This document shows, piece after piece, positions 23,668-27,761 of a stretch of 64,000 bases of DNA; position 1 is the first letter of the stretch; every line of letters starts with the position of its first letter. Position numbers and translations under genes: made by a program. Below the pieces are notes generated by a model. That model was not told the DNA's origin, did not search any database, and was given only the letters and a program-made list of their open reading frames with translations. Source of the stretch: Candidatus Heimdallarchaeota archaeon (GTDB taxonomy: Archaea > Asgardarchaeota > Heimdallarchaeia > Heimdallarchaeales > Heimdallarchaeaceae); assembly GCA_030603365.1 (NCBI GenBank), contig JAUVXV010000011.1, positions 64,001 to 128,000 on the forward strand, read 5' to 3'.

Positions 23668-24315
23668 CTAGAATGTGGCTTTGATTTCCTCATCAAGTTT
23701 TTTGACTTTCTCTTCTACACCCTCAATTAAGCCTTCAAGTTCCGCATGCATCTTCTCGGCATATTCTGCATCTTTATTCTTGATCCAACCGAGATTGATT
23801 TCTACATTATGCATAGCACTTTTTAGACCAGTTAAAGCACAAAGAGCACCAACACCGATATCAGAAAGAGCTTGTTTGTTACCTTTGGTTCCCATCTCAA
23901 GATGTAGTTCAATCACTTTTCTACAGTCTTTAACTGTTTCAAGGGGAACTTCAGCAGCAACTTTGTATTCAGCTAAGATTTTTGCTGAACGAGCAGCTTT
24001 TTCTTCTTCAGTGTCTTTTGGCATTCCAAACGCCTTGATTACACCACTAAAGGCATTAGCATCTTTATCAGTAAGTTCGGTTAATTTGATTCGAAGTGCT
24101 TCTGTTTTTTCTAGTTTTGCTTTAAAGAATTCTTCTACATCTTCATAGCCTTGTTTACCAATAGTTAATCGAGCAACCATACTACCAAGGGCAGCTCCCA
24201 TAGCTCCAGCTATACAAGCTGCAGATCCACCACCTGGTGCAGGAGCATCACTAGCTAGTTCATCTAAAAATTCTGTTATTACTTTCTCAATAAGCATTTT
24301 ACTCATCTTGTTCAT
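23668..24315 (-). CDS. Formiminotetrahydrofolate cyclodeaminase (FTCD C-terminal domain)
   Basis: LASDAPAPGGGSA, AAEVPL, GN..ALSD and NVEINL. Confidence 0.92.
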   Translation of the reverse strand: MNKMSKMLIEKVITEFLDELASDAPAPGGGSAACIAGAMGAALGSMVARLTIGKQGYEDVEEFFKAKLEKTEALRIKLTELTDKDANAFSGVIKAFGMPKDTEEEKAARSAKILAEYKVAAEVPLETVKDCRKVIELHLEMGTKGNKQALSDIGVGALCALTGLKSAMHNVEINLGWIKNKDAEYAEKMHAELEGLIEGVEEKVKKLDEEIKATF

Positions 24316-25243
24316 CTTCTGTAAAAATTCTTTTTTCTATAATCTGATTTCTGTCAAAATTGTTCAATTGTAAAGAGCTTTCAGCAGCATCAAGGAGTGC
24401 ATCTAAAGGTAGCATACCATAGATTTCTGACTCAGTTACTGCAACTCCGTATCGCTCAGCTTCTCTTTTAACCATATCAAAAACTCTGTGTAAAGGAGTA
24501 CCTGTATAATTAGTCACATTCATCGATACCTGAACTACTCCTCGTTCCTCAATATTCATAGCACCTGCTTGAATATATCTCAAACCACCACCTGAGTGTC
24601 TTATGTTTCGAGCAATTGCTTTGGCAATATCCATGTCGTTAGTATCAAGATAAATGTTGTACGCAATTAAGAAGTTTCTCGCTCCGATATTTATTGCACC
24701 AGCTGTTTCATGGGTTTGTCTTTTACCAAAATCTGGTATATAATCATCGTTTGTAGCTATCTCTTCCTTCAATTGTTCATACTGGAAAGATTTTGTTCTG
24801 TAATTCTGAAGAACTGCTCTATTGGGATTTTCTGTAGCATCACCATACAAATAAACTGGGATTTTCAAATCTTTTGCTATTTTTGCACCAAGTTTCTGTG
24901 CAAGTTTTGCACACTCTTCTAGAGTATAGTCAGAAACAGGTATGAATGGAATAACATCTGTAGAACCAAAACGATTGTGCTCTCCTTCATGTTCATTCAT
25001 ATCTATTAATTCAGTAGCTTTTATACATCCTGCAAAAGCAGCTTTATAGCATTCGTTGGGTTCGCCAATAAATGTAATTACGGCTCGGTTATGATCAGGG
25101 TCCATTCTACTATCTAAGAGAGTAATCTTACCTGCTTTCTTAATAGATTCAAGAATTTGATCAATAACCTCTTGCCTTCTACCTTCTGAAAAGTTAGGAA
25201 CACATTCAACTAAAGGCATATTTTCACCTTGTGTTAGCAACAA
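24299..25243 (-). CDS. ftcD: Glutamate formimidoyltransferase
   Basis: VECVPNFSEGR, DPDHNR, GARNFLIAYN and QVSMN. The likely start is at MPLVEC. Confidence 0.95.
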   Translation of the reverse strand: MLLTQGENMPLVECVPNFSEGRRQEVIDQILESIKKAGKITLLDSRMDPDHNRAVITFIGEPNECYKAAFAGCIKATELIDMNEHEGEHNRFGSTDVIPFIPVSDYTLEECAKLAQKLGAKIAKDLKIPVYLYGDATENPNRAVLQNYRTKSFQYEQLKEEIATNDDYIPDFGKRQTHETAGAINIGARNFLIAYNIYLDTNDMDIAKAIARNIRHSGGGLRYIQAGAMNIEERGVVQVSMNVTNYTGTPLHRVFDMVKREAERYGVAVTESEIYGMLPLDALLDAAESSLQLNNFDRNQIIEKRIFTEDEQDE

Positions 25244-25311: not shown

Positions 25312-26616
25312 TTAGAGATTTTTGATAATTTCTCTGAGAAGATTCATTCCTTCATCGATTTCTTCTTTATTTACATTCAGATAAGGTCGAAATCGAATAG
25401 TCTTTTCACCACAACCAAGAAGCAGGAATTCTTTGTCATAAGCTTGAGTTAGTATTTTATCTCGCATTTCTGAAGAAGGTAAATCAAAAGCAATCATCAA
25501 ACCTAAACCACGAGCATTTGACACCTTATCAGGAAATTCTTCTTGTAGCTCGTAGGTTTGTTTAAGCATATACTCACCCCTTTTTGCTGCATTATCAACG
25601 AGCTTTTCTTTCTCTATAATTTCAAGATACTTATTTGCTCGAAACATATCTACAAGATTTCCACCAAAAGTACTATTAATTCTACTACTCTCCTCGAAGA
25701 CATTATTTTCTATTTCTTTTACTCTGTTTGAAGCTAGTATTCCACTGACTTGCAACTTTTTACCAAAACTGATTATGTCAGGATTAGCTTTTTCAAAGTG
25801 CTCAAATGCCCAAAATTTACCAGTCAATCCTACTCCTGTTTGAATTTCATCGTAAATTAAAAGAAAGTCATGCTTATCAGCCATTTCACGTAATTTTTGG
25901 AAGAATTGGGGACGAAGATGATTATCTCCACCTTCGGATTGTATGGGTTCGACTATCAAGCAAGCAATATCATCACCATACATGTCTATCGCATCATGTA
26001 TTTCTTGACAACTTTTTTCCTCAGCCATTACAATTTGTTCAAAATTATCTTCAATAGGGAAAGTAACTTTAGGGCTGGAGACTCGAGGCCATTTGAATTT
26101 TGGAAAATATTTTATCTTTCTAGAATCGAAGGTATTAGTTAAACTAAGAGTATAACCTGAACGTCCATGAAAAGCTTGCTCAAAATGAATTACCTTACTC
26201 CCAACTTCATCTTCAAAACCTTTCTTGAAATTATTCCTAACCTTCCAATCAAAAGATGCTTTAAGTGCATTTTCAACAGCAAGAGCTCCTCCACTAATTA
26301 AGAACAAGTTAGGGAGAAAATCAGGTATTCCAACTCGACCAAAAGTTTCAACAAAATCACCCATCTCGTCTGTATAAAAATCTGAACTGCTTGGTTTATT
26401 TACAGCTACAGATGCAAGTTGATTCAGAAATTCTTTCTCAAGCATATCTGGATGATTAAACCCAACTGGAGATGAAGCAAAGAACGAAAAGAAATCTAAG
26501 AATGATTTACCAGATTTCTTATCAACAAGTCTACATCCTTGACTTTTTTCTAAATCAACAATCATGTTAAAACCGTCAGCAAGCATATATTTTCCTATTT
26601 TCTCGATAGCATCCAT
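25312..26616 (-). CDS. lat: L-lysine 6-transaminase (class III aminotransferase)
   Basis: FLDFFSFFAS, NKPSSSD, GGALAVENALKASFDWK, AFHGRSGYTLSLTNT, DEIQTG and SFGKK. Confidence 0.92.
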   Translation of the reverse strand: MDAIEKIGKYMLADGFNMIVDLEKSQGCRLVDKKSGKSFLDFFSFFASSPVGFNHPDMLEKEFLNQLASVAVNKPSSSDFYTDEMGDFVETFGRVGIPDFLPNLFLISGGALAVENALKASFDWKVRNNFKKGFEDEVGSKVIHFEQAFHGRSGYTLSLTNTFDSRKIKYFPKFKWPRVSSPKVTFPIEDNFEQIVMAEEKSCQEIHDAIDMYGDDIACLIVEPIQSEGGDNHLRPQFFQKLREMADKHDFLLIYDEIQTGVGLTGKFWAFEHFEKANPDIISFGKKLQVSGILASNRVKEIENNVFEESSRINSTFGGNLVDMFRANKYLEIIEKEKLVDNAAKRGEYMLKQTYELQEEFPDKVSNARGLGLMIAFDLPSSEMRDKILTQAYDKEFLLLGCGEKTIRFRPYLNVNKEEIDEGMNLLREIIKNL

Positions 26617-26654: not shown

Positions 26655-26662
26655 TTTATAAA
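26655..26662. promoter_or_regulatory. Palindromic TATA box TTTATAAA, usable for lat (-) and for the structured RNA (+)
   Basis: It matches the archaeal TATA consensus, about 40 nt from the lat start and about 22 nt before the GC-rich element. Confidence 0.5.
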
Positions 26663-26683
26663 TTGAACTGAATGACATCAAAA

Positions 26684-26797
26684 GGTGGTGGAAAATGCCG
26701 ATATGAAAGAGGAAATTTGAGTGGCTTATCAAACGGAGCGTTCGACCACTCATCCATCCTCTAGGGCAAGGGGTGCCTATCGGCAGTTACACAATGA
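26684..26797. ncRNA. Unassigned structured RNA (three-way junction)
   Basis: GC-rich island with five nested helices: 26696-703/26778-785, 26708-713/26757-762, 26718-724/26746-752, 26729-735/26739-745 and 26765-768/26774-777. Confidence 0.65.
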
Positions 26798-26808
26798 TTT
26801 TTCTTTTT
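26798..26808 (+). terminator. Oligo-T tract after the structured RNA
   Basis: TTTTTCTTTTT lies 12 nt after the closing helix. Confidence 0.4.
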
Positions 26809-26897
26809 AAATAGATTCTAATAGTTCTATCCGCAATTGTTAGAAACATTTTAGAAGTTCTTTTGGCAATTTTTTATACTTAAAAAGTTCTAAACGG

Positions 26898-27761
26898 ATG
26901 AGTACTATGCGAGAAATCAAAATGTATGTTGGTTGTACGGGTTTTAACTATGAAGATTGGAAAGCACAGCATGGTTCTTTTTACCCACCTAAAATTGACA
27001 GATTTGATTTACTTGAATTCTATTCTACACAATTCACTACTTGTGAGATTAATTCTACGTTCTATGCATTTCCAAAATTAGAAACTACTATTAGGTGGGC
27101 TAAATCACTTCCTGATGATTTTGTTCTAACCGCAAAAATACCCAAATCAATATGTCAAGCTGATCTTCTTTCAGGTGTTGAGAAACCTCTAAATGATTTC
27201 TTAAAAATTTTGCATCCTTTGAAGAAGAATTTAGGACCTCTAGTTATGCAACTTAAACCTAGTTTTGAAAAGAATGAAACAAATCTAGAACAAATTGTTG
27301 ATTTCATCGATTTTTTCCCTCATAATAACTATGAATTAATAATGGAGTTTAGACATTCAACTTGGTTCAATGAAGAAACATATGACTTACTCAATGAGAA
27401 GAAACTTGGAATCGTTAGTTCTTATCTTCCTTACATTAAATTTAATCTCTTTGAAGAAGTAAAAAAAGAGCATTTCTATCTAAGGCTGATAGGTTCTCAC
27501 CAACAACAAATTGGGTTAGGTAAGGAACTTAAAGACAGAACAAATTACATGGAAGAAACAGCTGATAATCTTCTACAAGCTTACCAAAACAATTCTAACA
27601 AATCAACAGGATATGTGTTTATCAACAATCATTTTTCAGGGTATGCACCACCAGCTGCTAGAAAATTCAAAGAAATGTTACAAGAAAGGGATATTTCGAT
27701 AGTTGAACCAGCAAACACTGTGTTTAAGGGACAGCAAAAACTAGCAGATTTCTTTGGTTAA
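26898..27761 (+). CDS. DUF72 (YecE-like) protein
   Basis: VGCTGFNYEDW, EINSTFY, EFRHSTW, YLRLIG and FINNHFSGYAP. Confidence 0.9.
   Translation: MSTMREIKMYVGCTGFNYEDWKAQHGSFYPPKIDRFDLLEFYSTQFTTCEINSTFYAFPKLETTIRWAKSLPDDFVLTAKIPKSICQADLLSGVEKPLNDFLKILHPLKKNLGPLVMQLKPSFEKNETNLEQIVDFIDFFPHNNYELIMEFRHSTWFNEETYDLLNEKKLGIVSSYLPYIKFNLFEEVKKEHFYLRLIGSHQQQIGLGKELKDRTNYMEETADNLLQAYQNNSNKSTGYVFINNHFSGYAPPAARKFKEMLQERDISIVEPANTVFKGQQKLADFFG

Follow-up and report, generated by a model that had tools for sequence, protein, structure and literature searches.

Small RNAs (sRNAs) that pair with translation-initiation regions provide the closest described parallels to the locus treated here. According to the abstract of one report, sRNA162 of Methanosarcina mazei uses a single-stranded linker to mask the ribosome-binding site of a trans-encoded transcription factor mRNA, and it has a cis target as well (PMC3510493). 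Two other sRNAs of the same species, sRNA41 and sRNA154, have multiple targets, mask ribosome-binding sites and act in nitrogen and carbon metabolism; sRNA154 carries an anti-RBS sequence in a loop, takes part in a feed-forward system and stabilises the mRNA of its regulator (PMC5867862). In Escherichia coli, OmrA/OmrB use a conserved 5' region to pair with several translation-initiation regions; one of these belongs to the sRNAs' own activator, OmpR, and an autoregulatory loop results (PMC2588501). No characterised regulatory sRNA with a target was found for the Asgard archaea in the literature searched, the coverage of which was incomplete.

Here we describe an element from the genome of a Candidatus Heimdallarchaeota archaeon, located in a 64,000-nucleotide stretch of DNA that was analysed as a whole (hereafter, the window). 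The element is a real, previously undescribed structured-RNA family, found within one Heimdallarchaeial family as far as we have searched. It is probably a stand-alone, trans-acting sRNA, encoded on the minus strand, that represses by base pairing its own regulator and a set of co-regulated genes.

The predicted RNA gene, its fold and its strand

The predicted sRNA gene lies at positions 26692–26785 of the minus strand and would give an RNA of about 92–105 nt, as judged from fold, conservation and TATA distance. TATA spacing places the 5' end at 26786–26784 (about 26785), and the 3' end would fall at the U4 tract 26695–26692 or at a second U4 tract, 26683–26680. The original prediction had described, from the letters alone, a GC-rich island in AT-rich DNA with nested helices. 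Both the island (51% GC, against 27% in the flanks) and the helices are present: P1 (TGCCGATA at 26696 with TATCGGCA at 26778), P2 (AGAGGA at 26708 with TCCTCT at 26757), P3 (TGAGTGG at 26718 with CCACTCA at 26746), P4 (TCAAACG at 26729 with CGTTCGA at 26739) and a side hairpin at 26765–26777. A suggested pseudoknot between GGTGGA at 26687 and TCCATC at 26753 can form here, but its TCCA occurs in this genome only and is not conserved. The 95-nt minus-strand unit folds at -38.9 kcal/mol (z -6.2), with none of 200 shuffles folding as well; the wider region 26670–26810, compared with shuffles, gives z -2.9 on the plus strand and -4.0 on the minus strand.

The 5' segment UGCCGAUA (26778–26785, minus) forms the 5' strand of P1 in this clade, pairing with 26696–26703 (minus), where UAUCGGCA is the 3' strand of the closing helix; the U-tract that comes next presumably serves as an archaeal terminator. 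Between them, the long arm P2-P3-P4 (26708–26762, minus) has a variable apex and invariant P2 and P3 cores (GAGG/CCUC and GUG/CAC, in 23/23 RNAs), of which a base-pairing model gives no account. Covariation, which had been proposed as a check, is seen as true compensatory changes at three flanking P3 positions by an anchored count. This count is preferred to the model-fitted alignment, in which double changes in 10 of 16 pairs (0/500 shuffles) are inflated by register shifts.

Two folds are possible, through two GCC and two GGC segments. In the clade of this genome, the preferred fold is a three-way junction, one loop of which holds CCCCU. In other clades, the preferred fold combines a long stem with a 5' hairpin and a single-stranded linker; two genomes carry a whole extra hairpin directly before the linker. 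In a metagenomic copy (L357:1790-1830), the 5' hairpin is tandemly duplicated ahead of an intact seed. This seed, ACCCCUUGCC (26765–26774, minus), places its CCCCU in the hairpin loop here and in the single-stranded linker in other clades; the predicted targets have ribosome-binding regions complementary to it, GCAAGGGG and GGCUAGGGG. In this genome the unpaired probability of CCCCU is 1.0 and the cost of opening the seed about 4 kcal/mol; the seed is unpaired in most clades and predicted to be partly paired in the G005-type clade. All 23 genus-level RNAs contain CCCCUUGCC. The segment CCCCUUGC, invariant and largely unpaired, complements the Shine-Dalgarno (SD) region of a 71-aa winged-helix regulator, and the UGCC(G/A) within the 5' segment also complements AUGGCA at the start codon of that regulator.

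The strand can be read from the promoters. On the minus strand, a TATA box (TATTTAAA, 26806–26813) begins 21 nt after the start of a GCGGA-N9-TAGA box (26816–26837), and it lies 29-30 nt before the GCC start of the RNA; the box is a putative site of the winged-helix regulator, and its 3' part overlaps the BRE position. The spacing of GCGGA box, TATA and GCC is fixed in the 19/19 genus loci measured, and the promoter geometry is kept in four other genera. A different TATA box, TTTATAAA at 26655–26662, had been thought to frame a plus-strand transcript. It proved to be the minus-strand promoter element of the neighbouring gene lat, since it keeps its distance to the lat start and not to the element, and it stays with lat where transporters or other genes of 1.6-4 kb separate lat from the RNA. 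The G-U argument for the minus strand held up when extended to relatives: one-sided changes at conserved helix positions are mostly G-U on that strand (20 G-U against 4 A-C cells). The fixed TATA spacing, together with the TATA box that belongs to lat, indicates that the element is a separate minus-strand gene, and not an H/ACA RNA read from the plus strand or a leader of lat. Judged by its sequence, it is an independent gene with its own promoter and terminator, and it is predicted to be transcribed. Of the functions first considered for it, a stand-alone sRNA is the most likely, given its own promoter and its separability from both neighbours.

An AT-rich imperfect hairpin over the RNA promoter (window 26808–26864) gave a sub-threshold match to mir-1829 (30.6 bits, cut-off 60), which was judged to be due to chance. 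A leader peptide was rejected, as the AUGs of the arm are absent in several clades and indels break the frame.

Occurrence and neighbouring genes

The element is single copy in this genome, which speaks against a repeat or mobile element. Its conservation was checked with a sequence-model search, which found a single locus in 20 of the 24 other genomes of the genus AB_125. Three of the four genomes without it also lack lat by the same query, so that assembly has probably missed the locus in these three. The fourth, G001 (89% complete), keeps the box, the TATA box and both target motifs but has no RNA after the promoter, and the RNA was not found elsewhere in that genome; it appears to have been lost. 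Mean column identity within the genus is only 57-66%. In four sister genera (g2–g5), a shorter and differently folded RNA stands behind the same promoter, adjoining or near the DUF72 gene. The sequence model found no convincing homolog outside the family among 30 genomes searched. Public records containing the core motif go under Candidatus Heimdallarchaeota (AB_125 among them), with one under Thorarchaeota; the pattern used for the metagenome scan was too loose, and that scan yielded only four true loci, two of them new.

The RNA was originally left unassigned, and so it stays: no Rfam family matches it at E<=10, and eight homologous loci run against Rfam 15 gave no match at gathering score. 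Likenesses to SAM-I, lysine, hammerhead, SECIS and T-box RNAs have no Rfam support, and their motifs are not conserved. SRP RNA and RNase P RNA both lie elsewhere in the genome, and ARAGORN finds no tRNA within the 64-kb window. The element is too variable to be a divergent 5S rRNA and matches no 5S model, even though no 5S was found in the genome (89% complete). On contig C8 of this assembly (G000), the 16S gene is separated from a partial 23S gene, which runs off the contig end, by about 8 kb that includes protein genes; the missing 5S is probably unassembled.

The neighbours are as first stated. Downstream lies lat (25312–26616, minus), an L-lysine 6-transaminase gene (TIGR03251, above cut-off) that is not a predicted target (rank 324 of 3363 after accessibility correction). 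On the other side, the divergent DUF72 gene (26898–27761, plus), with its own TATA near 26872, is a neighbour at most loci across the five genera. The distance between the RNA and lat in g2 is about 5 kb. The 3' side of the RNA is an insertion hot spot (L013-L020, L108, L113, L114, L120, L131), where the ORFs between RNA and lat vary by genome and include MFS-like, binding-protein-like, TnpB-like and small basic ones; one clade has other sequence in place of the 3' strand of P1. Between RNA and lat in g5 (G028) there is a masked stretch bordered by a 21-nt direct repeat (L127:1050-1190), possibly a short repeat array or an integrated element. Within the window, at 23668–25243, the formiminotransferase and cyclodeaminase parts of FTCD are encoded by two separate genes.

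The GCGGA box and the genes that share it

The GCGGA box recurs upstream of three protein genes or operons in this genome. It occurs twice before the gene for the 71-aa winged-helix regulator (HTH_24/MarR-like; G000 C1:499048-499260, minus), and it is also found upstream of a TPR/SNAP-like gene (C3:68546) and of an operon that encodes a longin-like protein, an Arf GTPase, a membrane protein and a longin-domain protein (C11:96368). As a lead only, the longin-like protein resembles a cluster in which 19% of members are NPR2. In a position-weight scan trained on the four main promoters, the best intergenic match outside the training set was a degenerate but conserved box before a further Arf GTPase gene (C9:91738).

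The box stands upstream of the winged-helix gene in all five genera, and it also precedes the regulator orthologs of a distant family (f6), where it is nearly unique to that promoter. The regulator, since its own gene carries the box, is the most likely factor to bind it, and we infer that the winged-helix protein does so. The position directly upstream of BRE/TATA is the usual place for archaeal activators, and the location of the box there suggests activation. In another family (f3; L206, L207, L213), related winged-helix genes have a different palindromic motif, TGTGCAAATTTGCAC, and no GCGGA box.

All box genes carry GGGG-type ribosome sites. AGGGG occurs at the SD position of only 70 of 3363 ORFs, yet all three strong-box protein genes and the Arf gene have it.

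Predicted pairing with target mRNAs

When the 5' 24 nt of the RNA are compared with the 3363 start regions of this genome, the regulator ranks first, at -25.4 kcal/mol (mean -9.4, sd 3.6), and the TPR gene fourth. After accessibility correction, the regulator ranks 6th, the longin-like gene 25th and the TPR gene 79th. The target sites are well conserved: AGCAAGGGGA is kept in 22/24 regulator orthologs and GGCTAGGG in 23/25 TPR orthologs. In five control genes, what is conserved is limited to 3-7-mers, of which the 7-mer is the canonical SD, and in a smaller set of nine genomes one gene kept a 9-mer. A Ras/Rab-family GTPase gene (G000 C1:23149, plus; L396-L418) has an AGGGG SD in 23/23 genomes and ranks 5th as a predicted target, and it has no GCGGA box. 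This gene may be a further target, or it may indicate that AGGGG is conserved simply as an SD. As AGGGG is a workable SD that is conserved even before this boxless gene, conservation of the target sites may partly reflect SD function. The genome encodes three Lsm proteins, which are possible chaperones.

The comparison across genera follows RNA and target together. In the genus of this genome (g1), CCCCUUGC faces GCAAGGGG; in g2, a seed CCCCUAGC faces GUUAGGGG in the regulator leader, a match that was predicted ahead of reading the g2 RNA. In g3, UGCCCA stands with UGGGCG and GCCUC with GAGGU; in g4, CCCCA stands with UGGGG and UGCCC with GGGCA. Both the SD-facing and the start-codon-facing parts change in g3 and g4, and the RNAs of these two genera pair best with their own targets (-18.9 and -21.2), within the top 0.3% of the start-region background of the present genome. 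The differences between RNA and target are G-U-compatible or compensatory (G/U in g2, G/U in g3 and A/U in g4). The pattern is incomplete. The full 5' domain of the g2 RNA pairs with its own target no better than with others, the g2 TPR ortholog has no match, and in g5 the seed CCCCUAGC pairs poorly with the regulator of its own genome (-9.8, 16th percentile). A perfect GCTAGGGG start-site target was searched for in g2 and g5 and not found. Conserved, co-varying complementarity to a distant mRNA thus appears in g1, g3 and g4 and at seed level in g2, and it does not appear in g5; the genera are related, so these matches are not independent.

Alternative explanations

Apart from an mRNA-pairing sRNA, the RNA could belong to the same regulon and act through a protein, as a decoy or scaffold with its P2/P3 cores, while GCAAGGGG/GCTAGGGG would be a DNA operator or a protein site. 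This would explain the invariance of the core sequences (23/23), the occurrence of the motif in every regulon promoter a short way past the predicted start site, and the failure of pairing in g5 and at the g2 TPR gene. However, the motif is inverted in the RNA gene and lies at the SD position in the mRNAs, the differences between RNA and target are those expected of pairing (G-U-compatible or compensatory), and the 5' end of the RNA tracks the start codon and second codon of the target, so we regard a protein-mediated role as rather unlikely. A cis-acting leader, attenuator or riboswitch of lat-ftcD, responding to lysine, histidine or folate and switching between two folds by exchange of GCC/GGC partners, was the other function first entertained. 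In the probable ancestral arrangement (g1, g3, g4) the RNA is indeed upstream of lat on the same strand, its clades favour different ones of the two folds, and a U-tract follows the closing helix. Yet the conserved TATA box gives lat its own promoter, 1.6-4 kb of unrelated genes intervene in several genomes and about 5 kb in g2, Rfam offers no riboswitch match, the junctions are not conserved across genera, and the seed follows a distant mRNA; control of lat in cis is improbable, and the initial suggestion is not supported.

A role as rRNA guide or processing RNA, either as a plus-strand H/ACA-like RNA or through pairing of GGCACCCCUU with AAGGGGUGCC in 23S domain I, draws on the ACA or ANA that often follows the helix on the plus strand and on a 10-nt complement in the 23S rRNA of this genome (C8:1675). 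We find it very improbable, because the evidence points to the minus strand, the site in 23S already forms one strand of a stem, 16S has no complement, and the seed changes across genera in step with the regulator mRNA. The H/ACA-like guide that had been thought possible finds no ACA at 14-16 nt from any pocket, and inspection revealed no ACA conserved on the minus strand and no box C/D, K-turn or tandem GA pairs. Least credible of all is a non-functional or merely terminating hairpin, such as a terminator or a mobile-element scar, kept by descent: sequence and length do differ strongly between genera, and G001 has apparently lost the RNA, but a single copy with its own promoter at fixed spacing, compensatory changes and an invariant unpaired seed is hard to reconcile with it. 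A trans-encoded replacement of the 16S anti-SD was rejected, as GGAUCACCUCCU is present after an insertion of about 30 nt (the Rfam 16S match only seemed tail-less) and the SD of the genome is canonical. The insertion itself (G000 C8:10098-10065, minus; L041), a self-complementary sequence and possibly a small intron, lies in the 3' strand of helix 45, directly before GGAUCACCUCCU. At C8:5981 (minus), 4 kb downstream of 16S and between similar TPR-like genes, GGATCACCTTCTACGTTTGGGATC nearly duplicates the 3' tail of 16S and has the look of a target site left behind by an insertion at that end of the gene.

Proposed circuit and its significance

The comparative case for a feedback loop between regulator and sRNA, built from genome sequences, is strong, though limited by the g5 exception. 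In the proposed circuit, the factor would bind the box and activate its own gene along with those for the RNA and for the GTPase, longin and TPR proteins. Transcription of the RNA would start from the TATA promoter with its upstream GCGGA box and stop at the U-tract. Its exposed CCCCU(UGC) seed would nucleate on the atypical AGGGG SD of target mRNAs, and pairing would then extend across the start codon by way of the RNA 5' end, so that 30S loading is blocked. The main target would be the mRNA of the 71-aa winged-helix regulator; other likely targets are the TPR/SNAP-like gene, the longin-like/Arf operon and the Arf GTPase gene. Negative feedback on the regulator, combined with an incoherent feed-forward loop on the regulon, would cap the factor and damp the regulon. 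As to the sign of regulation, we lean towards an activator with negative feedback over a repressor with a double-negative loop.

If this is right, it would define a first regulon for Asgard small-GTPase and longin genes, and it would show in archaea a kind of circuit known from bacteria, in which an sRNA represses the factor that regulates it. More tentatively, and with some doubt on our part, such an sRNA–transcription factor circuit in Heimdallarchaeia could jointly set the levels of eukaryote-signature proteins (Arf, possibly Ras/Rab-type GTPases, longin and SNAP-like TPR proteins) through a dedicated, non-canonical AGGGG signature. One seed could then address a class of mRNAs, and would do so in prokaryotes closely related to eukaryotes. 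With a named target, a cross-genus co-variation test and a candidate transcription factor with its box, each link is testable in vitro or in a heterologous archaeal reporter.

Comparison with known systems

Archaeal H/ACA guides resemble the element in their long irregular hairpin, and on the plus strand an ACA-like triplet often comes next; they differ from it in that this is the wrong strand, with no correctly spaced pocket, no evident K-turn and no Rfam match. The M. mazei RNAs are closer. Like sRNA162, the Heimdallarchaeial RNA is an archaeal intergenic sRNA with predicted masking of the ribosome-binding site of a transcription factor mRNA. Unlike in that case, RNA and target share a promoter box here, whereas the abstract on sRNA162 reports no control of that sRNA by the factor (PMC3510493); we found no sequence relation between the two. 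From sRNA41 and sRNA154 it differs in its predicted targets, namely genes for a winged-helix factor and for small-GTPase, longin and TPR proteins, which have AGGGG as a non-canonical SD. By sequence, it is a member of none of these sRNA families. OmrA/OmrB, in contrast to the Heimdallarchaeial RNA, are bacterial, depend on Hfq and RNase E and are driven by a two-component system, and there is no homology; what the proposed circuit shares with OmrA/OmrB is its logic.
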